Of a stretch of 32,000 nt of DNA, positions 8,968-30,224 are shown piece after piece. Every line of letters begins with the position of its first letter. The stretch's first letter is position 1. Source of the stretch: Candidatus Arthromitus sp. SFB-mouse-Japan (GTDB lineage: Bacteria > Bacillota > Clostridia > Clostridiales > Clostridiaceae); the NCBI RefSeq assembly GCF_000270205.1, contig NC_015913.1, positions 1,140,001 to 1,172,000 on the forward strand. Direction: 5' to 3'. The position numbers and the translations under genes are program-made. Below the pieces are notes generated by a model, which ran no database searches, was not told where the DNA came from, and saw nothing but the letters and a program-made list of their open reading frames with translations.

Positions 8968-9549
8968 ATGTCTAAGCAGAAAAACAAAAAAGATATTGCT
9001 AAAAAAGCTGTAGCTCTTGGTGCTGCTCTTGGTGTTGTTGCTGGTATCGGTGCTAATATGGCCGGAGGAGCTGAAGAAGCTCACGCGACTACTAGAAGAC
9101 CTTCTCAAACTAGATCAACTAAAAGTCAATCTAGCTCAACTTCTACATCTAAAAGACCAACTTCAAATGCTAAAACTACTGTAAAACAAGAGAATAGTGG
9201 AACAAATGAAAATACAAGAAACTCAAGAACAAACTCATCAGAAGAAAAACAAGAATCTACAAAAACAACAAGAAGAGGTAGGGGAGATAGCTCTACTGAA
9301 AGAAGAAAGAGCCAAGCTAAAGTTATGTCAAATTCTAATGTTGAAAGCGAAGAAGTAGACATAGATAATGAAGAAACAACTGAAGAGACTACAACATCTA
9401 AAAGACCAACTACAAACACAAGTAAATCATATAGAAGTATAAATGAGAAAAAACAAAAATCAAGAGCACTCGTTGAACAAAATAGATCTACTACATCAAC
9501 AGATAGTACTTCACAAAATAAAATTGTTGTTAGAGTATCTACAAAATAA
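8968..9549 (+). CDS. Small anchored/secreted disordered protein, family member 4 (193 aa)
   Basis: GGAGGTG RBS. N-terminus MSKQKNKKDIAKKAVALGAALGVVAGIGANMAGGAEEAHA. The 60 nt at 8996-9055 are identical to 7694-7753 and 8399-8458. The body is divergent, with three (K/R)RP(S/T)xx motifs. C-terminal KIVVRVSTK. Confidence 0.75.
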   Translation: MSKQKNKKDIAKKAVALGAALGVVAGIGANMAGGAEEAHATTRRPSQTRSTKSQSSSTSTSKRPTSNAKTTVKQENSGTNENTRNSRTNSSEEKQESTKTTRRGRGDSSTERRKSQAKVMSNSNVESEEVDIDNEETTEETTTSKRPTTNTSKSYRSINEKKQKSRALVEQNRSTTSTDSTSQNKIVVRVSTK

Positions 9550-12600: not shown

Positions 12601-13937
12601 CATGTAAATTTCACATTTACATTATTATCACTATCCACTATAGGTTCAACATAAATATCCTTTATACTAAATGGAAGAGTCATAAAACTTTCACTTTTAA
12701 TCGCCAAAGATCTCCCATCTGAATATTCAATTTCATAATCAATATTGTATTTTGTATTTGCTTTCAAATCTTTGTACTCAAACACATATTTATCTATTTT
12801 TGAAAAATTCATTAAATCCTTAGAAAAAACTTTTTTCCTAGACAATTTATCATTCTGCTCTTCAATATAAATATTTAGCTTATCTTCAAATTTAAAATTT
12901 ACATCATTTATAAAACTAAATTGGATCAATAAATCTTTCAAATTAATTACGCTTACATCTGTATATAAAGTAAAAAAATCATTAATCTGTCTTATTTCTC
13001 TCTCAATTGTTCTTCCTCCGAACATATACAAGAGCTTTATATCGTATAGCTCAGATAATTCTTTCAATTCGACCAAACTTAATTTAGCTTCCTCATCAGT
13101 TATCTTAACATCGGGGATAATCGAATAATTTATATCATTTTTTCCCTTAATATAAATATTAATTGAATCATTATCAATAAATTTAAAATCATTTGATGTA
13201 GTATCCCATTTTACTTCAATCAAATTGTTGTTAATCATCATTGAACTCATATTTGAGATATCAAAATCTTTGCTCCTTATAACCTTATCAAATACTAAAC
13301 TAACATTATCCTTTAAATTAATGACATATCTAACATCGTATGTGGTAGCTGGGTGTAATGAAATATCTTTGAATTTAAAAATATTTCGAAGATTGTTTAT
13401 TTCCTTATTTGATTTCTTAATATGAAAATCAAATTTTCCTTTCTCATCATTTTCCAATCTTTTACCATAAATTTCAATTCCATCTATAAAAATTAAATTC
13501 TTTCTATCATACCTAAATATAACATCGCAAGAATTAATTCCAATATCATGAACTCCAAAACTATTTTCCAAATATTTAAACTTCGATATTTGACTAGTTA
13601 TTTCATGTGATGATATATCAATTAGTGAAACTTTTAATTCGTACCCAACATTATTTTGCAATTCATCATATATAAAAAATTGTTTATCAATTTTATTAAT
13701 TTTAACCTCATCTCCAGAGATCAAATTTTTCAAACTCACATTATCTATTTCATATCTATCATTACCCGATACAATTTGCAAAAAATTTCCACCATTAACT
13801 ATGTAAATAGGAACACCTATATTATCTGATGCATAACTCAGTTTAACACTTAAATTAAAACAGGACATCATAAATAAAAAAACGAACAATCCAAAATATA
13901 TCATAAATTTCATTGTTGTCTTAAATAAATTATTCAC
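9639..13937 (-). CDS. Giant secreted multi-repeat (Fn3/Ig-like beta-sandwich) protein with acidic G/S/E/D linkers and C-terminal tandem DUF4214-type repeats
   Basis: GTG start preceded by GGTGGGGGG. Signal-like MKFMIYFGLFVFLFMMSCF...SYA. At least 7 repeats share the pattern xF(K/N/I)Fxx(D/E)Dx(L/I)x(I/L)(Y/F)(I/T/L)K ... YD(I/F/V)K(L/F)xY. Acidic low-complexity linkers at about 12230-12320 and 11705-11945. C-terminal NVYGRAFLRDPDEVGYDYWINRL and ILYSIVVDRDPDAEGLNFWINFY. Confidence 0.85.
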   Translation of the reverse strand: MNNLFKTTMKFMIYFGLFVFLFMMSCFNLSVKLSYASDNIGVPIYIVNGGNFLQIVSGNDRYEIDNVSLKNLISGDEVKINKIDKQFFIYDELQNNVGYELKVSLIDISSHEITSQISKFKYLENSFGVHDIGINSCDVIFRYDRKNLIFIDGIEIYGKRLENDEKGKFDFHIKKSNKEINNLRNIFKFKDISLHPATTYDVRYVINLKDNVSLVFDKVIRSKDFDISNMSSMMINNNLIEVKWDTTSNDFKFIDNDSINIYIKGKNDINYSIIPDVKITDEEAKLSLVELKELSELYDIKLLYMFGGRTIEREIRQINDFFTLYTDVSVINLKDLLIQFSFINDVNFKFEDKLNIYIEEQNDKLSRKKVFSKDLMNFSKIDKYVFEYKDLKANTKYNIDYEIEYSDGRSLAIKSESFMTLPFSIKDIYVEPIVDSDNNVNVKFTWELIAPNFNFRNDDSFKIFIKEKESSEYPNEPQFYANRDLNKLRSCILTLGRDISKEYDFKFVYYIDGREYVSYSDLTNNSFVRYQLIKEGESDSASDNSQEDSTDSEGGEGSGSNTSTSDTVKISIKDKKVNEVIFQLEYSENFKFEEGDSIRLFKKLRNGTSKTFSTDPDKEYIHSNSGDNPVNLLSLNEVIIGYLVPDKEYDFKIEFKTKNELKDKDTISSEGEDGGTGTEGSGEGDTGSSEGGDNGTGTGGEDNSESGSGNGSGETVEGSGDGETSEDVDSGDSSEEEEGTEETQNLVTRNIKTRESSTNGDGIKTLEKKFENQKTNQFTIDEFKTTAIRPNSASFEWKVSEEFINFDEKDKVEIYIKRKIINGYPAGSSFSRIGSEVSGVLKGEGIVTYMDMDYTAKLVYTISNVKFEKTLEFKTISANSSLNIGDVTEYYAIVDIHHPKDYIFSDGDSLEIYTKHKSEKNYPKEPNIITYHDGGNKLEDLTKFNILPILPDIEYDVLLTYKTKANDIADTTIDFRSKKLEIKNCRIDSRNGNTLRIKSDLVNDMEVIKYLETYVDVFYKLPEHKQYSDKIIASASSYDIFDFECKIPDYTEDYDLLISYNPHGYFNEVYFIDFELEYRGIKATVEEGEKEEEGVKKSTFDLKWSYGLDTKFSEGDKLNIYLKGTKKPEDSEDNTEETDKKKESNTTTSSEYVKIHTIETDIISVTSFNLDNFVSENMDYSVMIEPVSEKFTIGGGKTKFSVDKIVHTKPVEETIFEHPVEIEEFNGKGNQFAFSVPDLGDISLTKEMNISCDIEGISAQIDDNGNIGVMGLVPGKEYPSIEIKIIIETGKEITFNIQNITLEAENPRQAFLYNVYGRAFLRDPDEVGYDYWINRLNTHDIGARDFLINLLFAEKEFSELEYTTEKLIEILYSIVVDRDPDAEGLNFWINFYNNEALNNANGDVFNAKKYIVDRMINEEEFMKMVVGMGLKY

Positions 13938-14016
13938 CCAAATTAACCCCCCACCGAATTTATTAAAACCATAGATATTAGTTTTAAAAATTTTTTAATA
14001 ATTTATTCATATTAAC

Positions 14017-14053
14017 AAAAAAGAGATCCTTAAACCAAATGGCTAAAGATCCC
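14017..14053 (-). terminator. Probable terminator after the solute-binding protein gene
   Basis: Minus strand: GGGATCTTT (14053-14045) pairs with AAGGATCTC (14031-14023), including 2 G-U pairs, then T6. Confidence 0.45.
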
Positions 14054-14067
14054 TGTCAATATTAATT

Positions 14068-15525
14068 TTATGTTATATTATTTATTACAATTGTTCCATT
14101 ACCATCAATGTTATCGCTCAAAGTTATATTTGATAATATCAAATTCGGCTTATCAAAATTTATACTCTTTACATCTGATACGATATCTTCCTTAGAAATT
14201 AAAATATCATAGCTATCTTCAGTTAAATTATTTTTTATATATTCATCATCAAATGCAATAACATTGCTTGACAAATTAAACTCCTCATACAAAAAGTTTT
14301 TCAAACTCCTAGCAAGCTCTATATAATTATCATCAGAATACGTAACTATTTTTAAAGTCGTCTTCTCTTCAAAATTATATTTCTCAAGTTCCTTCCTCAA
14401 ATACTCAACATTAAATTTATATTTATTTAAACTATCTCCATTAATTCCATTTATGTGTCTTATATCCTTAACATCAACTATAAAATTCAAGAAATTTCCT
14501 TTTTCAATCTTCTCTTCCTCATTTTTAATTACATTGCCATCTTCATCTTTTTGCTCATCTTCAATATTTTTTGATACCTCTGCTATACTTTCATCACTTA
14601 TATATTTATCCAAATCAAAAATCATTTTAGAATCCTCATTATGTACATAATAAATTTGGTCAGAATCAAAATAATCAGAAATAGAATTGTACGCCGTATC
14701 AAGTACAAAATTCAGTTTACCAGATTTATAAGATTCAAGTGCAAACTCTCGAGTTGGAAACGCTTCAATTACTACATCTTTATCTCTTGAAATAGAATAC
14801 AATTTTCCATCCGATGTCTTGTAATTATTTAAATAATAATATTCATTCGGACTTAAGACTATTTTTAAATTCCCATTATGATCATTCTTAACAGAGGATA
14901 TCTTATACGCACCTGAATAAGATATGTACTCATAGAAATCTTTATAATTATACAAATATTTAAAATTTTCCCTCAAAGAAAATTTATCCTTTGTTAAATT
15001 TTTCAAAAATAATTCATCCATCTGTTTAAGCTTAATAACAAGAACATTATCTTTTAAAGACTCAATTCCAACATGCTCAAAAAGTATTTCACCTTTATAG
15101 TATTCATCCACGCCAACAATAAATTTTAATTCATCATAATAAAATTTATCTTTATCCTTATCTAAAATATCCTTAAAGAAATTCAAAAAATCCTGTGATG
15201 TTATTTGCTTACCCGTACTCATATAAGCATCATTTCTTATATAAAATCTATACTCAAGTCCATCACTAGAAATTGTATATCTCTCTGCAAGTCCAGATGA
15301 AATATCCCCATCGGGTGTAAGATTCACAAGCCCCTCAAATAAATTCCCAAGCATAACATTACTCACATAATTATTATCAGATAGATATACTAAATTTTCA
15401 GGAAGATTAACAACTCCAATAGATAAACCTGTCTTATCTAATATTAAATCTTTCTTCTGAAAAACATTAAACGCTAAATTAAAAATCAAAAAAACTATTA
15501 ACAAAATTACTTTTATTATCCTCAT
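14068..15525 (-). CDS. Extracellular solute-binding protein, family 5 (Opp/Dpp-type), orphan
   Basis: The N-terminal region LFEGLVNLTPDGDISSGLAERYTISSDGLEYRFYIRNDAYMSTGKQITSQDFLNFF matches the hallmark family-5 SBP pattern. It has an N-terminal hydrophobic anchor and no lipobox Cys. No permease or ATPase genes are nearby. Confidence 0.75.
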   Translation of the reverse strand: MRIIKVILLIVFLIFNLAFNVFQKKDLILDKTGLSIGVVNLPENLVYLSDNNYVSNVMLGNLFEGLVNLTPDGDISSGLAERYTISSDGLEYRFYIRNDAYMSTGKQITSQDFLNFFKDILDKDKDKFYYDELKFIVGVDEYYKGEILFEHVGIESLKDNVLVIKLKQMDELFLKNLTKDKFSLRENFKYLYNYKDFYEYISYSGAYKISSVKNDHNGNLKIVLSPNEYYYLNNYKTSDGKLYSISRDKDVVIEAFPTREFALESYKSGKLNFVLDTAYNSISDYFDSDQIYYVHNEDSKMIFDLDKYISDESIAEVSKNIEDEQKDEDGNVIKNEEEKIEKGNFLNFIVDVKDIRHINGINGDSLNKYKFNVEYLRKELEKYNFEEKTTLKIVTYSDDNYIELARSLKNFLYEEFNLSSNVIAFDDEYIKNNLTEDSYDILISKEDIVSDVKSINFDKPNLILSNITLSDNIDGNGTIVINNIT

Positions 15526-17575: not shown

Positions 17576-19771
17576 CTAAACAAATTCAATCGGTGCATTA
17601 TTTAATGCAAGTTTCTTAATTCCATTATTATCGAAAGCAACTATAACTTTTGGACTTTCTGGATCATCTTCAACCTTGACAACCATACCCAATCCAAAAT
17701 TTTTATGTTTAATTTTCATCCCTATCTTAACATCATCTTTTGAGACATCATTACATTTTTTTGAAATATCATTATCAAGTGGATTATAACTAAATTTCCC
17801 AAAACTTCTTGATGGCATAGACTGAGAAAGAGTAATCTCTTCACCTTTAAAATTAATATTCAACATCAAATCACTCGGAACTTCTCCTAAAAATTTAGAT
17901 TTAGTTCTAAATCCAGTTTCACCATAAACCATTCTCATATTCGCATATGTAAAATAAAGTATATCTTTAGCTCTCGTTATACCAACATAACAGAGTCTTC
18001 TTGATTCCTCCATCTCATCAATTTCATCAAAACACTTATTACTTGGAAAAATTCCATTTTCCATACCAACCATAAACACAACGGGAAACTCTAATCCTTT
18101 TGATGAGTGAATCGTCATAAGCGTAATTGAAGAGGATTTTTCATCATATTTATCGGTTTCACTAACAAGTGAAATATTCTCAAGAAAATCTTCAATATTA
18201 CTTCCAATATTCAATTGTTCAAAATTTACAGAAGCATTTATAAACTCCTGAATATTTTCAAAACGAGTATCTATATCAGAATCTTTCGACTTCTTCAAAG
18301 CATCAATGTAACCAATTTTATCAAGCATTAAACGAATAAATTCCGACGGATTTAAATCAATATATTTTCTAATTTCTTCAATAGATTTAGCAAAATTCTT
18401 TATAATATCTTGTGTTCTAAGGCTAATAGTTTCAATATCAGCACATGCAACCATTGAATCAAACAAACTAATACCATTTCTCTCAGCATATTCTAATAAT
18501 TTGGACAAAGTTGTATCACCAATACCTCTTTTCGGTTCATTTATAATTCTCCTAAGACTTATCTCATCACTAGGATTAACTATTGTTTTTATGTACGCAA
18601 TTACATCTTTAATTTCTTTTCTTTCATAAAAACGCATAACTCCTACAAGCTTATAGGGTATTTGATTCTTAACACATATTTCTTCAAACATTCTTGATTG
18701 TGAATTTGTTCTATACAAAATTCCAAAATCACGATATTCATATCCTCTTGAATTAATAATCCTAAAAATTTCATTAATAACAAATAAAGCTTCTTCTTCT
18801 GCACTACTTGCTTTAAATAATTTAATCTTCTCTCCCTCGTTATTTGTCGCCTTTAAAATTTTCTTCTTCCTTTTAATATTATTTAAAATTACTTTATTCG
18901 CAGCATCTAATATATTTGACTTCGATCTATAGTTTTTTTCAAGCTTAATTATCTTAGTATTCTTGTAATCTTTTTCAAAATCCAAGATATTATTTATATC
19001 TGCACCCCTCCACTGATAAATACATTGATCATCATCCCCAACAACACAAATATTCTTATTCATATCTGCAAGCATCTTAACTAAATAATATTGAGCATAA
19101 TTTGTATCCTGATACTCGTCAACCATAATATATTTAAATTTGGACTGATAAAAACTCAGAATTTCGGGAAACCTTTCAAATAATTCAATCGTTTTAAAAA
19201 TCAAATTATCAAAATCTAATGAATTATTTTCGAATAATTTTTTCTCATAAATTTCATAAATTTGTGCAATTAATTTCTCTCTGTAATTATCTGTATTAGA
19301 AATAGCTTCAATTGGTTTTATAAATTGATTTTTGTAATTAGAAATCCTTCTCAAAACTTCTGATGGTTCAATATTCTCCTGATTAATCTTAAGAATATCC
19401 ATACACTGTTTAACAAGAGTTTTTTGATCTGAAAAATCATAAATAGTAAATGAACTTGTATAACCAAGCTTATCAATTTCTCTTCTTAAAATACGAACAC
19501 ACAAAGAATGAAAAGTTGATATCCACATATTATCAGAAATTTCACCAATCAATGATCTAACTCTGTCCTTCATTTCCTTTGCTGCCTTATTTGTAAAAGT
19601 GATAGCAAGTATTTGATAACTATTAATTCCTAAATTTTTTACCATATGAGCAATTCTATATGTAATTGTTCTAGTCTTACCTGAACCTGCACCGGCTAAA
19701 ATAAGTAATGGCCCATCTATAGTTGTAACAGCACTATATTGCTCCTCATTTAATAACTCCCTTAACTCCAT
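17576..19771 (-). CDS. pcrA: ATP-dependent DNA helicase PcrA (UvrD/Rep family)
   Basis: Walker A AGAGSGKTRT, motif II VDEYQDTN, motif III VGDDDQCIYQWRGA, and the C-terminal VAFDNNGIKKL tail. The conserved pcrA-ligA order has only 2 nt between the genes. Confidence 0.95.
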   Translation of the reverse strand: MELRELLNEEQYSAVTTIDGPLLILAGAGSGKTRTITYRIAHMVKNLGINSYQILAITFTNKAAKEMKDRVRSLIGEISDNMWISTFHSLCVRILRREIDKLGYTSSFTIYDFSDQKTLVKQCMDILKINQENIEPSEVLRRISNYKNQFIKPIEAISNTDNYREKLIAQIYEIYEKKLFENNSLDFDNLIFKTIELFERFPEILSFYQSKFKYIMVDEYQDTNYAQYYLVKMLADMNKNICVVGDDDQCIYQWRGADINNILDFEKDYKNTKIIKLEKNYRSKSNILDAANKVILNNIKRKKKILKATNNEGEKIKLFKASSAEEEALFVINEIFRIINSRGYEYRDFGILYRTNSQSRMFEEICVKNQIPYKLVGVMRFYERKEIKDVIAYIKTIVNPSDEISLRRIINEPKRGIGDTTLSKLLEYAERNGISLFDSMVACADIETISLRTQDIIKNFAKSIEEIRKYIDLNPSEFIRLMLDKIGYIDALKKSKDSDIDTRFENIQEFINASVNFEQLNIGSNIEDFLENISLVSETDKYDEKSSSITLMTIHSSKGLEFPVVFMVGMENGIFPSNKCFDEIDEMEESRRLCYVGITRAKDILYFTYANMRMVYGETGFRTKSKFLGEVPSDLMLNINFKGEEITLSQSMPSRSFGKFSYNPLDNDISKKCNDVSKDDVKIGMKIKHKNFGLGMVVKVEDDPESPKVIVAFDNNGIKKLALNNAPIEFV

Positions 19772-19783
19772 AACTCTACTCTC

Positions 19784-20500
19784 CTAAACCATTTTTAATA
19801 GATTAATCTCTTCAATCGTTAAATGCCTATACTCTCCTTCTTTTAAATTTTCATCAAGCCTTATTCCACCAAACTCTATTCTCTTCAAATATGTAACCAT
19901 GAATCCAAAAACTCCAAACATCCTCTTAATTTGATGAAACTTACCCTCAATCAAAATAAGTTCACACTCTGACTCACCCTCATAAACTTTAAGTATTTTT
20001 AACTTCGATGATTTACACTTTATACCATCTTCTAAAACTATACCATCACTAAATATTCCAACAAATGAATCGTTTAAACATCCATTTACCCTTACAAAAT
20101 ATTTCTTTTCAACATGACGTTTAGGAGATAAAACCCTATGACACATATCTCCATCATTTGAAATAATTAAAAGTCCAACTGTATCCTTATCGAGTCTTCC
20201 TATTGGATAAGGATCTAGAATCTTATCTCTTTCATCTATAATTTCCAAAACTGTCCTATCAAATTTATCGTAAACTGCTGAAACAAATCCAGAAGGTTTA
20301 TTCATCATCAAATAAACAAACTCTTTATACAAAACCTCTTCACCTAGCACACAAACCTTATCATTATCTACATCAATATGTACAGATGGCTTATTTACAA
20401 TTTCTCCATTAACACTAACACTATTTTGATGTATCAACTTTTTAACTTCTTTCCTACTGCCATAACCATTATTAACAAGAAAATTATCTAATCTCTTCAT
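19784..20500 (-). CDS. RsuA/RluB-family rRNA pseudouridine synthase with N-terminal S4 domain
   Basis: S4-like MKRLDNFLVNNGYGSRKEVKKLI, catalytic-Asp motif GRLDKDTVGLLIISNDG, and KKYFVRV...GKFHQIKRMF. Confidence 0.85.
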   Translation of the reverse strand: MKRLDNFLVNNGYGSRKEVKKLIHQNSVSVNGEIVNKPSVHIDVDNDKVCVLGEEVLYKEFVYLMMNKPSGFVSAVYDKFDRTVLEIIDERDKILDPYPIGRLDKDTVGLLIISNDGDMCHRVLSPKRHVEKKYFVRVNGCLNDSFVGIFSDGIVLEDGIKCKSSKLKILKVYEGESECELILIEGKFHQIKRMFGVFGFMVTYLKRIEFGGIRLDENLKEGEYRHLTIEEINLLKMV

Positions 20501-20562
20501 AAATCCATTACTCCTATTTATTTCTAGAGAATATTTTACTACAACAGAAGTAAATTTTTAAT

Positions 20563-20596
20563 AAAAAATTAAAAGTAGCCTTTATAAGGCTACTTT
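20563..20596 (-). terminator. Rho-independent terminator after the SLT gene
   Basis: Minus strand: AAAGTAGCC (20596-20588) pairs with GGCTACTTT (20580-20572), then TTAATTTTTT. The stem overlaps the stop codon. Confidence 0.6.
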
Positions 20597-21239
20597 AAAA
20601 ACCATTATTATAATAGTGAATAATATTTGTAACATGTATACGAGTTTCCTTAGGAAGCATAGAAACATCTTCCAAAGACCTAAATCCACTTTTATCTAGA
20701 GCATTTCCACCACAATTATAGGCTGCAACTGCTCTAACTATATCCCCACTATACCTCTCTATCATTCCTTTTAAATGCTTAGTACCTGCATCAATATTCT
20801 CATAAATATCATACGGATCTTGAACATTAAATTTTTTTATAGTATTTGGCATAATTTGCATAAGTCCGATAGCCCCAGCATGTGAAACGCATCTGGGATT
20901 AAAATTTGATTCTTGCTTAATAAGAGATCTTATAAGTTTATCATCAACACCATATTTCTTAGAAGCTATCATTATCGCACTATCTACCTCATTATATATC
21001 GTGTTTTTATCATTCTCCTGATATGAATCACAATCAATCTCAACACATTCAAAATTCTTAGTTATATTAACCCTATAAAATTTTTTTGATAAATAAGATT
21101 GGCTCACCTCATCATTTGCCTCAACTACAACACTATTATAAGTCATATCTGATGCTGAAGTATTATGTACATTATTAAAAGCCACTTGTGATATTAAAAG
21201 TCCCACGGCACAAGCTACTTCAATGCTCTTCGCACCCAT
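20595..21239 (-). CDS. Secreted lytic transglycosylase (SLT domain)
   Basis: Signal-like N-terminus. SLT motifs IKQESNFNPRCVSHAGAIGLMQIMP (catalytic Glu-Ser) and AAYNCG. Confidence 0.85.
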   Translation of the reverse strand: MGAKSIEVACAVGLLISQVAFNNVHNTSASDMTYNSVVVEANDEVSQSYLSKKFYRVNITKNFECVEIDCDSYQENDKNTIYNEVDSAIMIASKKYGVDDKLIRSLIKQESNFNPRCVSHAGAIGLMQIMPNTIKKFNVQDPYDIYENIDAGTKHLKGMIERYSGDIVRAVAAYNCGGNALDKSGFRSLEDVSMLPKETRIHVTNIIHYYNNGF

Positions 21240-21307
21240 ATATAGAAAATTCCTCCTAAATAATTTATATTAGTTTAGTCATTTAGGAAGAATTTATTCA
21301 TTTATTT

Positions 21308-23338
21308 TTAAGTTACATTAAATTCATATATATCATAATCTTCATAGTTGCAATTCTTATACTCACTCTTTGTGAGAACAAGTAACTTATATTGACCTTC
21401 TTTAAACGGAATAAAACTATAAGTATTCTTCCTACTATAGGTCTGTACTCTCCTCCACATGCCTTGTTCCATTAAATAAAATTCATATCCAATATCACGT
21501 CCACCCTTTGTATTTACAACAAAGAATATAGAATTATTGACAAGTAAATAATCATCTTTGGCCTCACAAATAATTTTTGTATTAGTAATTGGAAATGAAT
21601 CCTGAACATATATACGAGCTTCTTTTAATGTATCGTACTCTAACTTTGAACTTTTATTTTTAGCCATAACAGAAAGCGTATACTTTCCTTTAACTGTAGG
21701 AACATAATCAAAAGATATATCATCTTTAAATTGAGTTTCAACTATTACTTGATCATCAATAGACAAAACATATTTAAATAAAGTTTGTTTAGTATTCTGA
21801 GCGATTACATTAAATATTATCGGTTCTCCTACAACGTAGCACTCCTGATTTTTATAGAGAATATAATCTATCTTCGCAGGATAATAATCCCATACCTTAA
21901 AGTGAAGTATTGTAGATACATCATACTCCTGAACTGAGAACATATCCTTAACCCTTATTTCAAGCTCATAATACCCTTGCTCTTGGGGCATAAAAGTCAA
22001 AAAGTTTTTATCACTATACTCTATATATCCAACTTCTCTATTCTCTTTTGTAATTATAAAACTATATTGTAATTTCAACCCGCCCTCAGCTTTAACAATA
22101 ATACCTATAGGTTTATTCTTCACGTGCTTATTATACGAATCTATTTGTACATCCAAAATTTTCACTACTTGAGAAATGTATGGCAATACCTCAAAATTCA
22201 TTTCAGTATACACATCATAACCTTGTGGTGTACTTTCATCTCTTACATAAACCTTAACATTGTAATTACCCGAAATTTTTGGTACCCATTGATAAAAATT
22301 TTCTCTTAAATAACCACTTTCTTCAATAAAAGGTTCATCATCACTGCTTGGCCCATTTATTACATACTTGTACAATAAATTCTTTCCACCTTCAACCTGA
22401 ATATTAAAAGTTATAGGATGCCCTGTATAGTGTGGAGAACTTAAATTAGCAGATAGTTCTATTATTTTTATCTCATTATAGGGTTTAACATCATATATAA
22501 TAATTGCCCTATCATCGTAATTATTTATGGAGTAAAGATCCTTTACAAGCACAAGCAATCTAAACTTACCGTACCCATTTTCAATAAATGAAACTATACT
22601 TTTAGTGGAATAATCCTGTACTACTTCTGCTTTACCTTCTTCATTAACCACTAAAAATTTGTATAAAACAGTTTTATTCTCTTCATTACTTACATCACAC
22701 TGAAAGATTAGTTCTTCACCCGAAATAAGTTCCTTGCTTAAACTTTTCAAAGACTGTATCTCAATCTTACCGACATCATTAACATAAAACTTTACAGTTG
22801 CAAAATCATCAAAATTATTTTCAGAATCCTGCTTCCTACACTGCACAAGTATCTCTTTTTCTCCTACCTCATTCAGAGTCAAAATAAGCTTATCATCATG
22901 TGTATATTCTTTTAATAATTCCCATCCATATTGACCATTTATCCAAAATTTATAAAGACTTGGTGAGTATGACGAGTCAACACTCAAAACTAATTGTTCA
23001 CCAACTGAATAAATATCTTTATCCAAATGTAGTGATTTTATTATTTTTTCATCTTCAAAATCTTTACCAATTATATAATTTTCTCTAGCTATATAATCAA
23101 ATGCTTTCTTACTTGAAATATTTTTAGCCTGAACCATAACTATATAATTTCCATACTCTGAAGGAATCCACACGGCCTCTTGTTTCGTAGAAAAATCCTG
23201 TATAGTATACCAAACACCATTAATTCCCACACAAAACCTGTATACTAATTCCTCATCTAATCCCGAAACCTTTATATTTATTGACACATTCTTATCTTGT
23301 GGAGACGCTAAGCTAAAATCTATCAATAATTCATTCAC
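21308..23338 (-). CDS. Seven-repeat triple-tyrosine (Y_Y_Y-like) beta-sandwich protein
   Basis: GTG start with GGGGGA 6 nt upstream. About 95-aa units recur 7 times: Y(K/R/E)F...G.W...(D/E/T)Y(S/T)......(W/F).P...G.Y.(L/V).V..K.....(Y/F)D. Examples: YRFCVGINGVWYTIQDFS, YKFWINGQYGWELLKEYT, YEFYLMEQGMWRRVQTYS. No N-terminal signal peptide is evident. Confidence 0.75.
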   Translation of the reverse strand: MNELLIDFSLASPQDKNVSINIKVSGLDEELVYRFCVGINGVWYTIQDFSTKQEAVWIPSEYGNYIVMVQAKNISSKKAFDYIARENYIIGKDFEDEKIIKSLHLDKDIYSVGEQLVLSVDSSYSPSLYKFWINGQYGWELLKEYTHDDKLILTLNEVGEKEILVQCRKQDSENNFDDFATVKFYVNDVGKIEIQSLKSLSKELISGEELIFQCDVSNEENKTVLYKFLVVNEEGKAEVVQDYSTKSIVSFIENGYGKFRLLVLVKDLYSINNYDDRAIIIYDVKPYNEIKIIELSANLSSPHYTGHPITFNIQVEGGKNLLYKYVINGPSSDDEPFIEESGYLRENFYQWVPKISGNYNVKVYVRDESTPQGYDVYTEMNFEVLPYISQVVKILDVQIDSYNKHVKNKPIGIIVKAEGGLKLQYSFIITKENREVGYIEYSDKNFLTFMPQEQGYYELEIRVKDMFSVQEYDVSTILHFKVWDYYPAKIDYILYKNQECYVVGEPIIFNVIAQNTKQTLFKYVLSIDDQVIVETQFKDDISFDYVPTVKGKYTLSVMAKNKSSKLEYDTLKEARIYVQDSFPITNTKIICEAKDDYLLVNNSIFFVVNTKGGRDIGYEFYLMEQGMWRRVQTYSRKNTYSFIPFKEGQYKLLVLTKSEYKNCNYEDYDIYEFNVT

Positions 23339-23444
23339 AGTTTATCCCCCTTGCAGCACGTAAGCATAAATATAACCATCATATATTTCGTATTTCTTAA
23401 AATTTTCAAATTTATTTTACTAAAACTATAATATATTTAAGTCA

Positions 23445-23474
23445 ATTATACTTTATTTAATATTATGTATTCAA
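23445..23474 (-). promoter_or_regulatory. Candidate sigma-A promoter for the Y_Y_Y-repeat gene
   Basis: Minus strand: TTGAAT (23474-23469), 18-nt spacer, TATAAT (23450-23445). Sequence match only, in AT-rich DNA. Confidence 0.3.
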
Positions 23475-23513
23475 CTAAAAACATAGTAAATTTACCAAAA
23501 TTTAGCATTATAA

Positions 23514-26500
23514 TTATTTAAATATATTTTGATTATAAAAATCACCCTCCTTTTGTAATTTTTCGTAAATATTTGAGATCCCATCCTCCAAATTTATCTC
23601 TATAAATTTTTCACTTATACATTTAATTATTTGATTATATTTCTTACATTCTTCAAGTTTTAAAATTAAAGTTTCTTTATATTTCTTAGATTTCAAAAAT
23701 TTCTCATTTTCATATATATTTTCAAATCTTAATATTTCCTCTTCATACTTATGTTCTATAATATCTAAGTAATTTATCTTAAATTTTAGAAAATCTTCGC
23801 TCGAAAACCTATGAATATAAGTTAAAGCATTAATACCATTATTTTTACCTGAACAAAATTCAAAATAAATCGGACATTTGTTATAAATCTTTGAATGATT
23901 TTTAAAAAAATCCTTTAAGAAATACTGAACAATATTTTCTCTATAACTTCCACCCTTAAATCCAAGAGAGCTACAAACAAATCTTAAATTCTCATCAATA
24001 AACTCCTTATCAAATACAATTTCTAAAAACTTCAAAAATAAATTGTAAATATCATTTTTAAAATATTCCTCTGTAGAAATTATTAAAATATTATCTTTTT
24101 CTGGGTAAAATTTTTCATAATCCCTTTTAAAAATATTATCTACATTATCTATAACCTTCTCATAATCAAGCGAATATCTTCCAAACACACATCCAACAAA
24201 ATAACTCAAGAAACTCTCAACAAATTTTTTCTCATCAATCTTTCTTATAGATACATTTCCATCTTCAACTTCGTAAGAAACCTCATCTGAAAATCCATAA
24301 ATTTCTTTGAAAATAAAATTTATTCTCTCCTCATTTCTCTTAACCTCCTCGAACATGGTTTCAACTTCTCTATAAAAATTATCATAAGAATCTTTAAGTC
24401 TTCCACTTATCTTAAATTCAATTGATGGATGAACTTTAAAATCCCAAGATGTTTCATAAAAATCCCATTCTTTTTTGCACAAATAAATATTTCTATTAGC
24501 AAGCTTTGTTATATCATCTAAATATGAATCATCCATTATAATCGGAAGATCTCCAATATTACCTATTTGAAAATTAACTGTCGGTGCTATAGAAGATAAT
24601 AGATAAAAACAAACATTTGAACACAAAAAAGCTAAAATATATTTTTCATACTTTTTATCTGGAAAAAGAGAAGATCCAGAAACATCAAAAATAAATCCAT
24701 AATCTTTATACCTAACACCAAAATTTTTAAAACCAAATAAAGACCATGTAATTCCTTTTTTGAAATAATACTTTCTATTTTTAATCACAAACTCTGGATC
24801 AGTTATTCGAGGATATTTCGCCTTCACAAAATTTATAAGATTTTCTCCAGAATTCTCATATTTAATTATGTACTCATTATTTCCATACCATTTCCTATAG
24901 TCCCCACCTTTGTTATATGGAAACCATTTCTTATCTATATTCTTCACATCATTATGATTTTTAGAGCAAAATTCTATATCACTTTTGTTAAGTTCATACC
25001 AATATCTAACAAAAGTTTTATTATCAGTTGTTGCCATACCTTGTTTTGGCTCAAAATATTCTTTAAGAGGTTTAAACTCTCTAAAAATTTCTCTTGCCCT
25101 CTCACTTATCCAATAATTTATTGGAGATCCTGGAACATCATCAAATGATTTCAATTTTATCCTTGAGTTCCTATTATGCGATATTGGAAAATTAGTAGGC
25201 TCACCACTTGCATTAATATCTTCATATTTAACATAGTTGTATATTCCTTCATAATCTTCAATCGATTTCTTCTTAAATATGGTAGCACTCGTTCCAAAAG
25301 CAATTGACATTACATTATTGTCCATATGTAAAAGTGAAACTATCGTATTACTTTCTGATATAGATTTTCTAAGTTTCTCAAATTTATAAAGAAACATCCA
25401 AGATTGCATAGTGAGCATTACATTAAATCCATTATCATGTGTTAACTCAAATCCCCTCTCAATAAATACGGAAAATAAATCCATTTTACTATTTGGATAA
25501 TTCTCTTTTAAATAAAGTGCAAGTTTTTCCCCCATTCCACGACTACTCATGTATGGAGGATTTGTTACAACAATGTGATACTTACTACTCAAAAGTCTTG
25601 AGAGATTAATTAAGTTTTTCATACAATAAAGCTCTTCTTCATTTAAATAAGGATATATAGCATCTTCTATTGAATCAAAATCAAGTTTCTTCACAGATAA
25701 AAGAGAACCATATTCCTTTGAATCTCTAAATGAATCCAATATATATTTAACATCATAAAATTTATCATGCTCAAGAATACTTGCCTTCGCAAGTACACTA
25801 TCATATATTTCATTACTCTCAATAATCGGATAAAGATTGAACTTAATATTATTATTCCTTAAAAATTTCCTAAATCTACTTCTACCTTTCATCATAAGAG
25901 CAAAGTATGCAAGTTCATACGCCCTATCATCAATATCAATTCCAAACAAATTATTTTCAAATATTAAATACGGAATCTCACTCTCTAAATATCCGTACTC
26001 CTTATAGATCTCAAAAAGAAGATCGAATGCATAAACCAAAATATGGCCACTACCCATACATGGATCAATTATTTTTATATCTTCTGGTGAAATATTTTTA
26101 AAGTCAGGTTCCCCAATCTCTGCATCAACAAAATATTTAAGTTTTACTGGAAATTCACTTTCTCCACTATTTTCTATGTAGAATCTCCCAAGAGAATTTT
26201 CGACCATATACTTAACAATCCATTTAGGTGTAAAAATTTGAGTTACAGAAGGTATATTTTCTTTAGATATCTTTATATTTTGCTTAAGTCTCCTAAAAAT
26301 TTCATCCTTCTTTTCTGTTATGTAGTATTGATAAAGCCAACCAATAATTTCAACGTTATTGAAAAAATATTTTTCATCAATTTCCTCTATAATTTTTCTA
26401 ATAAAACTATTCTCATTAGAAAGATTAACTGGAAAAAGTAAATTTCTATAATCATTTGTCTTTTTAAAAATTCCAGGAAGAATTTCATTTAAAGCATTGC

Positions 26501-26981
26501 ATTGCTCAATAAACAAATACTTAAATAATTCATCAATTTTATTCTCGCTTTTAAGCTTAAGAATATATTCTCTATCGACATAAAAATCCAAATCATCAAA
26601 ATATGTAACTATATCAGGATCAATCTTATTCTTATTTAAAGACGACAAAACCCTAATACCAGATGGAAGATAATTATTAATTTCCATAAATCTTATAGCA
26701 ATTACACGATTGAACCAAGTATAAGCAGCTTCCTCAACAATAGAATCAAATCCTCTTTCACTAATTTTCTTAACTAAAATTTCTCTTTTCTCTATATCTT
26801 GTCCAAAAATTCTATATACCCTATCTGCTCCTATTTTATACTCCTCATACTCATTCCCATCTCTTACACCTTCTTGTACATGATCTTTCGTAATACCAAG
26901 TAAAAGAAGCTTATCAGTTACTTCCTTTATTAAACTTTTCCTCGCCCAAACAGCAAAATTTTTAATTACATTCTTATTCAT
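23514..26981 (-). CDS. pglX: BREX-type adenine-specific DNA methyltransferase PglX
   Basis: About 1155 aa. N-terminus MNKNVIKNFAVWARKSLIKEV is typical of PglX. SAM-binding motif IIDPCMGSGHIL (about 26047-26076). Catalytic VVTNPPY (NPPY = 25551-25562). Long C-terminal extension. ATG at 26981 overlaps the brxC stop within ATGAATAA. Confidence 0.9.
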   Translation of the reverse strand: MNKNVIKNFAVWARKSLIKEVTDKLLLLGITKDHVQEGVRDGNEYEEYKIGADRVYRIFGQDIEKREILVKKISERGFDSIVEEAAYTWFNRVIAIRFMEINNYLPSGIRVLSSLNKNKIDPDIVTYFDDLDFYVDREYILKLKSENKIDELFKYLFIEQCNALNEILPGIFKKTNDYRNLLFPVNLSNENSFIRKIIEEIDEKYFFNNVEIIGWLYQYYITEKKDEIFRRLKQNIKISKENIPSVTQIFTPKWIVKYMVENSLGRFYIENSGESEFPVKLKYFVDAEIGEPDFKNISPEDIKIIDPCMGSGHILVYAFDLLFEIYKEYGYLESEIPYLIFENNLFGIDIDDRAYELAYFALMMKGRSRFRKFLRNNNIKFNLYPIIESNEIYDSVLAKASILEHDKFYDVKYILDSFRDSKEYGSLLSVKKLDFDSIEDAIYPYLNEEELYCMKNLINLSRLLSSKYHIVVTNPPYMSSRGMGEKLALYLKENYPNSKMDLFSVFIERGFELTHDNGFNVMLTMQSWMFLYKFEKLRKSISESNTIVSLLHMDNNVMSIAFGTSATIFKKKSIEDYEGIYNYVKYEDINASGEPTNFPISHNRNSRIKLKSFDDVPGSPINYWISERAREIFREFKPLKEYFEPKQGMATTDNKTFVRYWYELNKSDIEFCSKNHNDVKNIDKKWFPYNKGGDYRKWYGNNEYIIKYENSGENLINFVKAKYPRITDPEFVIKNRKYYFKKGITWSLFGFKNFGVRYKDYGFIFDVSGSSLFPDKKYEKYILAFLCSNVCFYLLSSIAPTVNFQIGNIGDLPIIMDDSYLDDITKLANRNIYLCKKEWDFYETSWDFKVHPSIEFKISGRLKDSYDNFYREVETMFEEVKRNEERINFIFKEIYGFSDEVSYEVEDGNVSIRKIDEKKFVESFLSYFVGCVFGRYSLDYEKVIDNVDNIFKRDYEKFYPEKDNILIISTEEYFKNDIYNLFLKFLEIVFDKEFIDENLRFVCSSLGFKGGSYRENIVQYFLKDFFKNHSKIYNKCPIYFEFCSGKNNGINALTYIHRFSSEDFLKFKINYLDIIEHKYEEEILRFENIYENEKFLKSKKYKETLILKLEECKKYNQIIKCISEKFIEINLEDGISNIYEKLQKEGDFYNQNIFK

Positions 26982-29900
26982 CAATAATCCCTCTATCTTT
27001 TAAAAATATGCCCTCCATTTTAATTCCATAAATATCAAACAAACTAGAACAACCATTAAGCTTATCTTTCAACTCATACAATAAATCTTCACATATAAAA
27101 TCAGCAATCTCTTTATCCAAAAATTCATCAACATACTTAATATTTTGATCCAAATATAAACTATGTATCTCAAAAAAAGAATTAACATATCCTTTTAATT
27201 TTGAAATACTACGATATGGATCATCACTATGTAAAACTTCTTTAATTTTTAATGCACACTCATATACACCATTTTTATTAGGAATAAAATTCTTATCTTT
27301 ATTAAAAATTTCTATAGAAACAATAGCCCTCTTAAATATTTCAAACTGAACACTCGTATAAAAATTATGAACAAGTTCAAATTTTTCAAATTTTGATAAT
27401 ATTAGATTTTCATCTAAATCACATAAATTAGCATCCTTAAACTCGAATATAAAATTCTCAAATTCATTTACAAAATCAATATTCAAATAAACATTATTAC
27501 TTTTTGAAATATTTTTAATCAAATTAATACGCTCTAAAATCTCATTAAAATCATCAGATGAAGTCACCTTAAGTTCATCAATACTATTAACAAAATATTT
27601 CTTACCAAATATCTCTTCAAATAATTTTTTATAAATATTGAATTTATGTTTTCCTCCATTATCCAAAAATTCAACGTAAATTTTATTTAAACTTCCTTTA
27701 ACCTCTACAAACTCCTTAAGCTTATCAAAACTATAATCACAAAATAATTTTCCTTCTTTTACAAAACACAAAATCCCAAATAAAACATCATGTCTATTAA
27801 ATCCATAAGGTATTTGTTTAAAATGAGAAATGATGTCAGAAATTTTTATCTTCCCAACATTGCTCAAAAAATTAAAAAGTTCTTTCATAAATAAAGAATT
27901 ACAAATCAATATTTCATTTAACATTTTATCATCATTCAAAGCTACAAGCATATCTTTTGTGGAATCCAAAACCCTTTCAATATAAAAAAACTTATTAAAT
28001 CTACATGAAATAATATCATTTAAAGCTATTCTAAAAATCTCCCCTACACTTGAAAATTTTTTACATAAAATTTCTCCATTTACAAATATCTTTGCACTCT
28101 TAATATTATCAAGTATTAAAACCTTAACTCTCTCTAAACGATTATTATGTTCAACTTCCTTTTGCTTAATAATTTCATAGAATGAATCCTTATAAGAATC
28201 CTTATTATACTTTAAAAATTTATCTAACTTTAGATATAAATTTATCTCCTCGACTAAACTTTTATCATTATCCAAATAAACGATAACATTGTTCTCTATA
28301 CTAGATATAACCCTTATCAAATCCAAATTAAAATTCTCATCGTAATTGGTCATAAGAACTTTAATTCCAATAAGATTTGCCTTTGAAACCCTATATTCTC
28401 CGTTATCAAAAAATTGGTTAATACCGAAGTAACCCTTTCCTTGATACTTAAACTTGACAATCCCTATAACTTCATCAAATATTTCCCTGCATAACAAGTT
28501 ATTTATATCATGTGAATTAACATTACTCCTAATTATTTTATAATTTATATCTCTCTCATTCTTTGACAAAAAATAAAATTTATCGCCATCTCTACTAACA
28601 AATCCTTCGTTAATAAGCTTAGATAAAGAATTCTTAATTTTATTTATTATATTACTCTCTAAACTAATATTGGAAATAATTAATGATAATATAGTATCCA
28701 TGTTCCCAACCATATTCGGAACATACTTAATCAAAAATAATACCTTCAATATGTTAATATCAAATTCATCAAGCATCGTATAATCTTTTAAAATCAAAAA
28801 TATGTACTGATGATTATAATCAATAAAATCACTAATCGCATCATAGAACATATAAAACGGAACAATACAGTTAATATCATAATCCTTAAAATTAATTAAA
28901 ACCTTTTGAAAACAATTAATAATACTTCTTTCACCTTTTGATATATCCCTACTTATAACATTGTTCTTAATCATATAAAATATAATTTCCCTTAAAAGCT
29001 CAAGCTGATAAGGAAGAAAAGGATAATAATTTACAAATTGATCTCTATTTATACTATTTTGATGATTACTTATAACTAGATCTGATCCAAACTTCGTCTT
29101 TATAAAAAACTTTTTCTCATCATAAAACTCTCCTATCAGATCTATGAACTCATCCTTTTTAAGTAACAATCTCCTATTCAAAACTTCTCCAATATTAATG
29201 CTCGATAAATGAAACTTATTTTTAAATCTACTTTGAATTTTTGAAAAATCATAGCTTTTATCATTTACCATATTTAAAATATCAACATGACTTGTAACAA
29301 TAACAAACGCCCTTCCTAAACATTTAATAGAAAGTTCCTCAACAATCGTCTGAAGATTTAAAATCTTATTCACATCATCAGCTATAAATTGAGAAACTTC
29401 ATCTATCATAAACACAATACTATGGTCCTTACCTTTTTTCTCTATATACTCGTTAACTTTACGAGCAAAAATATCAACATTCATTTTATAATTCTTTTCA
29501 ATATTAACAAAATAATCTTGTGCTACATCTAAACTAAAATTCTTACACACACTCAACGCCTTAATTAAATGCTCTTTATAAAAATAAAACTTCTCTCTTC
29601 CTTCTTCCCAACTAATATTAGAAATATCTAAAAACTCTCGTCTAAAATCATCAAAAATATTTTCATCAGATAGTTGTTCCTCAAGTTCACATACAAATCC
29701 ATGACAAGATGAAAATCCCCTCATAGAATTAAACTCATTAACAAATACATCAAGCATTAATTCTTCTTTAATATTTTTTGAATCTATATTAAAGATGATA
29801 ACATCCTTGGAGATACCTGCTACAAATTCAAGATCGTTTTTAATTTTAAGCAGACAATCATTATTTTTAATTAATAAATCCAAATTAATTTGCCTAAGTA

Positions 29901-30153
29901 TGTAATATAAAATCTTAAGAAAATGCGATTTACCACTACCAAAAAAACCTGAAATCCAAAATCCGATTTCATCATTTCTAGTAACAAAAGTATTTTTATA
30001 CGCTTCAATAAATTTACTTATGTAATTAAAAATCTCATGAGTAATAACATACTCGTCTATCTCAACTATCTCTCTCCCCATATTTTCTGAAACTTTAACT
30101 ACACTTTGTATATCTCTCTCAACATCTTTTAAAAAAATATCTTTGATAAACAT
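26974..30153 (-). CDS. brxC: BREX P-loop ATPase BrxC/PglY
   Basis: About 1059 aa. N-terminus MFIKDIFLKDVERDIQSVVKV. Walker A GFFGSGKSHFLK (29926-29949). Walker-B-like SIVFMIDEVSQF. Start set at ATG 30153 with GAGGTG (30164-30159) 5 nt upstream; the track's TTG at 30165 overlaps the RBS. Confidence 0.9.
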   Translation of the reverse strand: MFIKDIFLKDVERDIQSVVKVSENMGREIVEIDEYVITHEIFNYISKFIEAYKNTFVTRNDEIGFWISGFFGSGKSHFLKILYYILRQINLDLLIKNNDCLLKIKNDLEFVAGISKDVIIFNIDSKNIKEELMLDVFVNEFNSMRGFSSCHGFVCELEEQLSDENIFDDFRREFLDISNISWEEGREKFYFYKEHLIKALSVCKNFSLDVAQDYFVNIEKNYKMNVDIFARKVNEYIEKKGKDHSIVFMIDEVSQFIADDVNKILNLQTIVEELSIKCLGRAFVIVTSHVDILNMVNDKSYDFSKIQSRFKNKFHLSSINIGEVLNRRLLLKKDEFIDLIGEFYDEKKFFIKTKFGSDLVISNHQNSINRDQFVNYYPFLPYQLELLREIIFYMIKNNVISRDISKGERSIINCFQKVLINFKDYDINCIVPFYMFYDAISDFIDYNHQYIFLILKDYTMLDEFDINILKVLFLIKYVPNMVGNMDTILSLIISNISLESNIINKIKNSLSKLINEGFVSRDGDKFYFLSKNERDINYKIIRSNVNSHDINNLLCREIFDEVIGIVKFKYQGKGYFGINQFFDNGEYRVSKANLIGIKVLMTNYDENFNLDLIRVISSIENNVIVYLDNDKSLVEEINLYLKLDKFLKYNKDSYKDSFYEIIKQKEVEHNNRLERVKVLILDNIKSAKIFVNGEILCKKFSSVGEIFRIALNDIISCRFNKFFYIERVLDSTKDMLVALNDDKMLNEILICNSLFMKELFNFLSNVGKIKISDIISHFKQIPYGFNRHDVLFGILCFVKEGKLFCDYSFDKLKEFVEVKGSLNKIYVEFLDNGGKHKFNIYKKLFEEIFGKKYFVNSIDELKVTSSDDFNEILERINLIKNISKSNNVYLNIDFVNEFENFIFEFKDANLCDLDENLILSKFEKFELVHNFYTSVQFEIFKRAIVSIEIFNKDKNFIPNKNGVYECALKIKEVLHSDDPYRSISKLKGYVNSFFEIHSLYLDQNIKYVDEFLDKEIADFICEDLLYELKDKLNGCSSLFDIYGIKMEGIFLKDRGIIDE

Positions 30154-30163
30154 ATTACACCTC

Positions 30164-30206
30164 AAAAAATAACAACTTATAATTCAAAAAACCAAATTAT
30201 AAGTTG
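30164..30206 (-). terminator. Rho-independent terminator of pgi
   Basis: Minus strand: CAACTTATAATT (30206-30195) pairs perfectly (12 bp) with AATTATAAGTTG (30184-30173), then TTATTTTTT, which runs directly into the brxC RBS. Confidence 0.7.
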
Positions 30207-30224
30207 CTATAAAATCATTTTAAA

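Follow-up and report, generated by a model that had tools for sequence, protein, structure and literature searches.

The brxC-pglX locus

The stretch analyzed here, a 32,000-nucleotide window (positions 1,140,001 to 1,172,000 of contig NC_015913.1) of Candidatus Arthromitus sp. SFB-mouse-Japan, one of the segmented filamentous bacteria (SFB), carries two adjacent genes of the brxC and pglX families of type 1 bacteriophage exclusion (BREX) systems, without the other components of such systems. They occupy two long minus-strand open reading frames (ORFs), at 26974-30165 (brxC, as extended to a TTG codon) and 23514-26984 (pglX), and the coordinates of genes, motifs and junctions are collected in Table 1. 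A sequence-only reading of the window had described two ORFs of about 1059 and 1155 codons with an 8-nt overlap, the first of BrxC type with a Walker A motif and the second a PglX with an S-adenosylmethionine (SAM) motif and a catalytic NPPY. The ORFs, the ATGAATAA junction and all three motifs are there, and profile searches, a check named in advance, place both proteins in their families above curated cut-offs. By exact sequence look-up the genes correspond to NCBI records SFBM_1081/BAK56845.1 (brxC) and SFBM_1080/BAK56844.1 (pglX), and both protein sequences are identical across several mouse SFB isolates. RefSeq and UniRef already label the two as BrxC and BREX-1 PglX, so the gene-level annotation is public.

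BrxC scores 713 bits with its PADLOC model (profile positions 1-1057 of 1190) and 683 bits with NCBIfam NF033441 (cut-off 400; profile 2-1066 of 1173), matches the Pfam families BREX_BrxC_4th and BrxC_wHTH, and aligns with the Acinetobacter BrxC structure in the PDB (9zdx, chain 9zdx_C; E = 4e-111). Its AAA+ ATP site is complete, with Walker A and B motifs, arginine-finger equivalents K305/R309 and sensor-2 R409; K75, D251/E252, K305/R309 and R409 align with Acinetobacter K78, E269, K326/R330 and R430, respectively (site assignments from PMC13326643). PglX scores 1240 bits over its full length with PADLOC and 1160 bits with NCBIfam NF033452 (BREX-1 PglX; cut-off 500; profile 1-1209 of 1210), matches Pfam Eco57I, and aligns from residue 1 to 1141 with residues 1-1206 of Salmonella PglX (PDB 8c45; E = 1e-180); with the alignment beginning at residue 1, there is no nuclease domain. 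The type IIL/IIG enzymes of the MmeI family share the core of methyltransferase (MTase) and target recognition domain (TRD), and SFB PglX has a weak match to Pfam MmeI_Mtase and scores 1045 bits with PADLOC REase_MTase_IIG, but the PglX N-terminal helical bundle takes the place of their nuclease domain and the PglX-specific models score higher.

Table 1. Features of the brxC-pglX locus, in window coordinates
Feature	Position	Strand	Description
brxC	26974..30153	-	AAA+ ATPase, ORC/Cdc6 clade, 1059 aa; ATG at 30153, stop 26974-26976
BrxC Walker A	29926..29949	-	GFFGSGKSHFLK, GFFGSGKS, residues 69-76, K75; aligns with Acinetobacter K78
BrxC Walker B	29398..29412	-	FMIDE, residues 248-252, D251/E252
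pglX	23514..26981	-	gamma-class N6-adenine DNA methyltransferase, BREX-1 type, 1155 aa; ATG at 26981, stop 23514-23516
PglX motif I, SAM binding	26046..26066	-	IIDPCMGSGHIL, DPCMGSG, residues 306-312; aligns with Salmonella GxG 315-317 (PMC11341690)
PglX motif IV, catalytic	25551..25562	-	NPPY, residues 474-477; aligns with Salmonella NPPY 509-512
PglX TRD	24552..25109	-	residues ~625-810, mapped by alignment from Salmonella TRD 662-849 (PMC11341690)
brxC/pglX overlap	26974..26981	-	8 nt, ATGAATAA; brxC stop and pglX start
brxC Shine-Dalgarno	30158..30163	-	GAGGTG, 4 nt before the ATG; the U-run abuts it directly
Hairpin and U-run	30164..30210	-	19-bp AT-rich hairpin 30169-30210, U-run 30164-30168; pgi terminator and/or brxC leader
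pglX/Y_Y_Y spacer	23339..23513	-	175 nt; downstream boundary of the module; promoter-like hexamers for Y_Y_Y

Absence of the other BREX components

Canonical type 1 loci, of which the annotated reference L031 is an example, are organized brxA-brxB-brxC-pglX-pglZ-brxL, and BrxA-like and BrxB-like components form a universal BREX core (PMC12839542). Component profiles built from 80 canonical loci were searched against six-frame ORFs, taken from stop to stop and 30 aa or longer. The control loci come from a profile scan of genome contigs with the alignment of the SFB-type (short) BrxC, among whose listed matches all are canonical, at 28-35% identity; the set derives from two peptide patterns and consists mostly of Firmicutes type 1 systems. 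Among the 59 control loci with adequate flanks, BrxA is present in 57, BrxB in 58 (each time directly upstream of brxC), PglX in 57, PglZ in 51 and BrxL in 27. In the 11 SFB loci counted, the window included, PglX is present and BrxA, BrxB, PglZ (best E-values 0.8-9) and BrxL are each found in none.

The sequence-only reading had noted the lack of pglZ, brxL, brxA and brxB, which both profiles and six-frame ORFs bear out for the window. Apart from the pair, no window ORF of at least 80 aa matches PglZ, BrxL, BrxA, BrxB or another BREX component in PADLOC or Pfam, and the six-frame ORFs of the window contain no partner fragments (best E-values 0.5-9, which is noise). Neither SFB BrxC nor PglX contains an embedded BrxA- or BrxB-like domain (best E 0.5), and the flanks retrieved for nine SFB lineages (10 kb per side, less at contig ends) hold no BREX-like genes besides the pair. 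The locus thus has the BrxC ATPase and a PglX of BREX-1 architecture, and lacks the components by which BREX is defined (PglZ, BrxA and BrxB) as well as the Lon-like AAA+ BrxL of type 1, with both of its proteins being bona fide family members. At the one BrxB-contact residue compared, Acinetobacter BrxC D204 aligns with SFB E187, a conservative change that carries no information here, since the same face also makes BrxC-BrxC contacts.

Two observations concern other loci of the comparison. The canonical loci without a detected PglZ mostly have insertions that push pglZ past the flank: L033, L069, L016, L039, L040 and L059 have extra genes between brxC and pglX or after pglX, which put pglZ beyond the 10-kb flank and may be insertions or shufflon-like modules; such extra genes in canonical type 1 loci are typical of variable defence islands. 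Separately, locus L058 (Clostridium moutaii, 10001-13534) has a brxC of canonical length (1177 aa) with BrxA, BrxB, PglX and PglZ all absent within 10 kb per side, and is a true orphan brxC, different in kind from the SFB pair.

Synteny and spread in SFB

Nine SFB lineages were compared (the window, SFB-rat-Yit, two metagenome-assembled genomes from NCBI and five metagenome lineages from ENA/Logan), and in all nine the gene order is pgi-brxC-pglX-Y_Y_Y-SLT-rluB-pcrA-ligA, with BrxC identity as low as 47-51%. A search of other genomes for loci with brxC and pglX only had been proposed as a check; the same two-gene block is present in each of these nine lineages. The neighbours in the window are housekeeping genes, with pgi upstream (59 nt from the TTG-extended ORF, 71 nt from the ATG) and, downstream, genes for a Y_Y_Y protein, beginning 175 nt after pglX, an SLT transglycosylase, an rluB-like protein, pcrA and ligA, in keeping with the flanks as first described.

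Clostridium sp. MSJ-4 and Clostridium putrefaciens have the order pgi-DUF188-small ORF-Y_Y_Y-SLT-rluB-pcrA-ligA and no BREX genes at this position. Since Clostridium outside SFB carries DUF188 in the gap between pgi and Y_Y_Y, brxC-pglX was inserted into a housekeeping block; the pair appears to have entered this ancestral block in the SFB ancestor and to have been inherited vertically since. The proteins likewise form closed groups among the best 120 matches listed in each homologue search: the short-BrxC clade has 14 clusters of 1046-1064 aa at 49-100% identity, followed by a sharp drop to canonical proteins of ~1185 aa at 30-35%, and the PglX clade has 15 clusters at 69-96% identity, with the next matches at 45% or below. 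The nearest canonical proteins are 32-35% identical for BrxC and 43-45% for PglX. A phage-borne origin was considered and rejected, as no relative of the SFB-type BrxC was found on IMG/VR viral contigs.

The same comparison bears on the suggestion, made in the sequence-only reading, that the system had recruited adjacent non-BREX genes, with the Y_Y_Y protein and the SLT transglycosylase substituting for lost BREX components. Both genes lie on the same strand as the pair and adjoin it in 9 of 9 lineages, and the pglX/Y_Y_Y spacer contains no detected terminator (nor any PglZ or BrxL remnant). However, they are not recruits, because Y_Y_Y-SLT-rluB-pcrA-ligA is the ancestral Clostridium synteny and stands without BREX genes in MSJ-4 and C. 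putrefaciens; the Y_Y_Y protein is an end-to-end member of PRK14081, a family ubiquitous in clostridia, and its gene has promoter-like sites of its own in the spacer. Recruitment is accordingly very improbable, and is rejected on the outgroup synteny.

A few local departures were seen in individual lineages. L002 (GCA_964271565.1) has an aldehyde dehydrogenase gene on the minus strand and a gene for a protein with two transmembrane segments between SLT and rluB (19540-21319), the sole break of synteny. L007 (Logan ERR12378332) has a group II intron maturase ORF upstream of the block (277-1569) on its SFB-lineage contig, and its pcrA is in pieces of 227 aa and 475 aa about 800 bp apart (20491-23168), which may reflect an intron insertion or an assembly problem. 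In L006 (ENA ERZ1764591), an assembly of ~3x coverage, Y_Y_Y is in two parts of 548 aa and 106 aa (12776-14729), probably by a sequencing error, because the otherwise identical L004 and L005 have an intact gene.

A shortened BrxC

BrxC had been taken as complete from the sequence alone; it is not full length, and its C-terminal profile positions are uncovered. About 85-130 terminal residues or profile positions of canonical BrxC have no coverage, a truncation defined by three independent alignments: the PADLOC and NCBIfam profiles both stop about 110-130 positions short of their ends, and in a MAFFT alignment with 12 canonical BrxC sequences residues ~1104-1189 of canonical protein P0016 have no counterpart. 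The final ~85-100 residues are absent from the whole clade of short BrxC proteins. This region is not resolved in the solved BrxC structures, but in Acinetobacter BrxC the last ~80 residues are a C-terminal dimerization motif whose deletion abolishes both methylation and defence (PMC13326643). By alignment, then, BrxC lacks the dimerization motif across the SFB clade.

Selection on the pair

Both ORFs are uninterrupted in 9 of 9 SFB lineages, and the frameshifts for which relatives were to be checked are found in none of them. The Walker A and B motifs, K305/R309 and R409 of BrxC and the GSG motif and NPPY of PglX are invariant in all nine; Walker A, K305/R309 and R409 are also invariant in 14 proteins of the short-BrxC clade. 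Ratios of nonsynonymous to synonymous substitution rates (dN/dS) from the mouse-rat SFB pair, for which dS is about 0.6-0.7 and unsaturated, are 0.072 for pglX and 0.186 for brxC, alongside 0.042 for Y_Y_Y, 0.074 for pcrA, 0.078 for pgi, 0.193 for rluB and 0.278 for SLT. Within the pair, the ratio is 0.042 in the pglX TRD, 0.059 in the pglX MTase core and 0.127 in the brxC AAA+ domain; the C-terminal third of brxC evolves fastest within that gene (0.33-0.42), and every region of the two genes is below 0.43. Both brxC and pglX are under purifying selection, as the length of the reading frames had suggested, and a decaying remnant is excluded by the intact ORFs in nine lineages, the low dN/dS and the invariant catalytic residues.

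A frozen TRD and an inverted pattern of constraint

The structure of Salmonella PglX comprises an MTase domain (227-661), a TRD with the specificity residues (662-849) and spacer helices, and its conserved C-terminal region is a proposed binder of other BREX components (PMC11341690). Between SFB lineages the TRD is 82-96% identical (36 pairs), compared with ~36% between canonical proteins, and the ratio of TRD to MTase identity is 1.04-1.23 in 36 of 36 SFB pairs but averages 0.54 in 217 canonical pairs with MTase identity of at least 60%, none of which reaches 1 (maximum 0.96); pairs in this and the following regional comparisons are not statistically independent. The TRD is the best-conserved part of PglX across SFB, with 69% of its positions invariant in the nine lineages, and this although synonymous sites between these lineages are saturated. 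At the SFB-invariant TRD columns canonical proteins show at least nine different residues, and SFB has no variation at the residues matching Salmonella specificity positions 802 and 838. The residue at the latter is Asn803, which hints at an A at position -1.

Regions expected to contact the missing partners show the opposite. Relative to the MTase, the identity of the PglX C-terminal region is 0.85 in SFB versus 1.11 in canonical systems, that of the BrxC AAA+ domain, which canonically is the docking site of BrxB:PglZ (PMC13326643), 0.81 versus 1.15, and that of BrxC overall 0.70 versus 1.04. Relative to canonical BREX the pattern of constraint is thus inverted, with a frozen TRD and relaxed partner-contact regions. 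Phase variation, common in canonical pglX (PMC11341690), was considered for the pair and rejected, as no simple sequence repeats, homopolymers of at least 8 bases or convincing tandem repeats were found in brxC-pglX. On our reading of these comparisons, specificity would have been frozen while constraints imposed by lost partners relaxed, and real loss fits better than relocation.

Relocation would make this an ordinary BREX system that is split, its pglZ and brxB, and possibly brxA and brxL too, lying at other sites of the SFB chromosome (1.5-1.6 Mb) and acting with the pair in normal methylation plus exclusion; a pglZ elsewhere in the genome would reduce the finding to an unusual split BREX. 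The dependence of canonical PglX and BrxC on BrxB:PglZ for activity speaks for such an arrangement, but BREX genes are described as a single operon (PMC13326643), with brxB adjoining brxC in nearly every control locus as counted above, and the partners are absent within 10 kb per side in every SFB locus with full flanks. Moreover, measured against the MTase core, the BrxB:PglZ-binding AAA+ domain of BrxC and the C-terminal region of PglX are relaxed; the dimerization motif that canonical BrxC requires is deleted, and a frozen TRD is atypical of an active defence system. A split system is, on this indirect evidence, unlikely.

A further alternative is that the pair is catalytically silent and has been kept for a DNA-binding or structural role, for example in chromosome organization, methylation being irrelevant. 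It would fit with the lost dimerization motif and with the near-inactivity of canonical PglX on its own, as E. coli BrxX alone is motif specific but has a kcat of only about 1e-3 per minute in vitro (PMC11317158). However, nine lineages show no variation in either the ATP-site elements (Walker A and B, arginine fingers, sensor 2) or the SAM-binding and NPPY motifs, and the MTase core and TRD are the most constrained regions, so that we regard a silent pair as quite improbable.

A proposed domesticated modification module

The two genes are BREX derived, have no companions from that system at the locus and are maintained by purifying selection. What they represent is a PglZ-less module of PglX and a BrxC lacking its C-terminal domain; it descends from type 1 BREX, and a prominent gut symbiont carries it as a fixed part of its core genome. 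With type 1 BREX (E. coli HS, Salmonella StySA and Acinetobacter) it shares homologous BrxC and PglX, the order of brxC then pglX, a tight junction, and intact ATPase and gamma-class MTase motifs, but it differs in lacking PglZ, BrxB, BrxA and BrxL in nine lineages, in a BrxC without the dimerization motif, in a TRD that is frozen rather than diversified, and in a vertically inherited core-genome position rather than one in a defence island.

The proposal that follows is that what was domesticated in the ancestor of SFB is the modifying half of a type 1 BREX system. A BREX element would have inserted between pgi and Y_Y_Y of the conserved clostridial housekeeping block, and brxA-brxB on one side, pglZ-brxL on the other and the BrxC dimerization motif would all have been lost since. 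BrxC, a predicted ATP-hydrolysing, DNA-binding AAA+ protein, would load or activate PglX on DNA, and PglX would N6-methylate the adenine of one fixed, probably asymmetric, ~6-bp motif chromosome-wide. With neither the nuclease PglZ nor BrxL there, no restriction arm would follow methylation, and the mark would therefore serve the cell itself and not a phage arms race; it might regulate genes during the complex SFB life cycle, act as a cue for replication or repair, or protect against an unlinked factor. That the pair is a restriction-less, BrxC-assisted adenine methyltransferase module with a fixed motif we consider an even call. The fuller version, a domesticated core-genome epigenetic writer in which BrxC without BrxB:PglZ and the dimerization motif suffices to load PglX and the fixed N6-methyladenine (m6A) mark serves SFB physiology (e.g., filament, holdfast or spore differentiation) and not immunity, is put forward tentatively, with a probability somewhat short of even. 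Methylation, its requirement for BrxC and the use of the mark are all parts that we infer.

Among the three explanations first offered from the sequence, a stand-alone ATPase plus methyltransferase module is therefore the best supported, and the evidence leans toward an epigenetic one. The pair resembles clade-conserved orphan methyltransferases in that no restriction gene is linked to it, it is vertically conserved and its TRD is fixed, the activity itself being predicted from the protein; by that analogy, a TRD that is frozen and a location in the core genome suggest that the mark is for the cell's own use. Solitary methyltransferases such as Dam and CcrM lack cognate restriction, have clade-conserved positions, fixed specificity and strong purifying selection, and are small and act alone. 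The SFB enzyme, by contrast, is a BREX-type protein of 1155 aa whose companion, an AAA+ ATPase of 1059 aa, has been retained with it and is also under selection.

Mechanistically, the best parallel to a pair of ATPase and methyltransferase is found in the DUF499-centred BR types 1-2 and MANTIS, which are also PglZ-less and in which an AAA+ ATPase related to BrxC recruits, loads and activates an adenine methyltransferase in an ATP-dependent fashion, and the latter hemimethylates an asymmetric 6-bp site (2026 preprint). These systems are defined by a DUF499 ATPase, an N6-MTase and a helicase(-nuclease) (PMC12839542). They are not the same as the SFB pair: their ATPase is DUF499 (MtsA) and their MTase alpha-class, rather than BrxC and PglX, and a helicase-nuclease effector is invariably part of them, as is a DUF3780 co-factor in type 2; the SFB locus has none of these. 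The SFB ATPase matches only BrxC models, and the sole nearby helicase is the housekeeping PcrA of the ancestral synteny.

Several points weigh against domestication as a methylation module. PglX methylation in vivo needs BrxB, PglZ and BrxC in every type 1 system tested, and deletion of the C-terminal 80 residues of Acinetobacter BrxC abolishes it (PMC13326643); given this canonical dependence on partners, the SFB pair would need to have evolved independence of them. MANTIS additionally requires a second factor, MtsB (2026 preprint), and SFB methylome, expression or phenotype data were not found in the literature searched. The canonical set is horizontally distributed and the SFB genes are vertical orthologues, and part of the TRD contrast thus reflects history. 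Lastly, SFB meets phages and carries 4 prophages and 3 CRISPR loci, which leaves room for a role in defence.

Such a role could take the form of a minimal two-protein defence, in which PglX marks self and, on unmethylated DNA, motif-bound PglX triggers BrxC oligomers that block replication without a nuclease. BREX is reported to stop phage DNA replication without wholesale degradation, and BrxC oligomers form in a DNA-dependent manner (PMC13326643); the ATPase site is strictly conserved, the prophages and CRISPR loci attest to phage pressure, and the C-terminal third of BrxC is its fastest-evolving part. However, restriction requires PglZ in all systems studied (PMC13326643), the TRD is frozen across lineages with saturated synonymous sites, the locus is fixed in the core genome rather than in a variable island, there is no phase variation, and dN/dS is nowhere near 1. 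We hold this form of defence to be rather unlikely, and an epigenetic role is favoured over it by the frozen TRD, the core-genome position and the lack of phase-variation signals.

Neither the SFB genes nor an architecture of BrxC and PglX only is described in the literature searched, which included the most comprehensive survey of BREX (in which unassigned hits were discarded), SFB genome papers and the locus tags; nothing on Arthromitus with BREX, PglZ or these tags stands in Rakesh & Krishnan 2026, in Tesson 2022 or in the SFB genome papers, and the MetaEdit paper on SFB editing makes generic remarks only on restriction-modification. If the proposal is true, the pair would be the first natural BREX "minimal methylation complex," with a defence system turned to a housekeeping function, and a clear case of such a system of which a symbiont with a reduced genome has retained just the part for modification, as a fixed element of its core genome. 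The activation of PglX and its need for BrxB, BrxC and PglZ are standing questions of BREX mechanism, for which the SFB pair, under natural selection and managing without BrxB:PglZ and the dimerization motif throughout the history of a genus, would be a ready-made minimal system that could serve to dissect ATPase-dependent loading of a methyltransferase. SFB are key immunomodulatory commensals that induce T helper 17 cells and immunoglobulin A and are difficult to grow in culture and to manipulate genetically; a conserved putative m6A writer, apparently without the BREX restriction arm, bears on the design of DNA delivery and on possible epigenetic control of the life cycle.

Junctions and expression signals

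The hairpin between pgi and brxC has a fold energy of -17.2 kcal/mol (z = -4.1) and is kept in six species, with G.U-compatible changes and two compensatory pairs, and the brxC Shine-Dalgarno sequence is near-invariant in the same number of species (SFB-rat has GGGGTG). The hairpin and U-run abut this Shine-Dalgarno sequence, so that transcription of brxC would either read through from pgi or start at a promoter that overlaps the hairpin. A consensus scan for a brxC promoter gave 59 sites against 54 expected in shuffled sequence, which is no excess; a TATAAT hexamer that the hairpin has in its 5' arm is a lead only. The element could be an overlapping terminator and promoter, or a read-through control of brxC-pglX. 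The junction within the pair is more variable: the translational coupling proposed from the window applies in mouse and rat SFB, yet the module as a whole does not conserve it, since the 8-nt overlap occurs in just three of the nine lineages (the window, L001 and L091), with a gap of 4-20 nt in the other six.

Other genes in the window

Elsewhere in the window are two tandem ORFs of 174 aa, 100% identical and 705 bp apart (7657-8181 and 8362-8886, plus strand), followed by a third paralogue at 39% identity (8968-9549, plus strand). The three share an N-terminal KKAVALGAALGVVAGIGAxMAGGAEEAHA segment, resembling a signal peptide or membrane anchor, with the remainder rich in S, T, K and N and low in complexity; neither Pfam nor PADLOC gives a match to them, and they may constitute an SFB-specific family of surface or secreted proteins. 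Two minus-strand genes code for proteins of 1432 aa (9639-13937) and 361 aa (4067-5152), each of which ends with a DUF4214 domain, the larger having no other recognizable domain.

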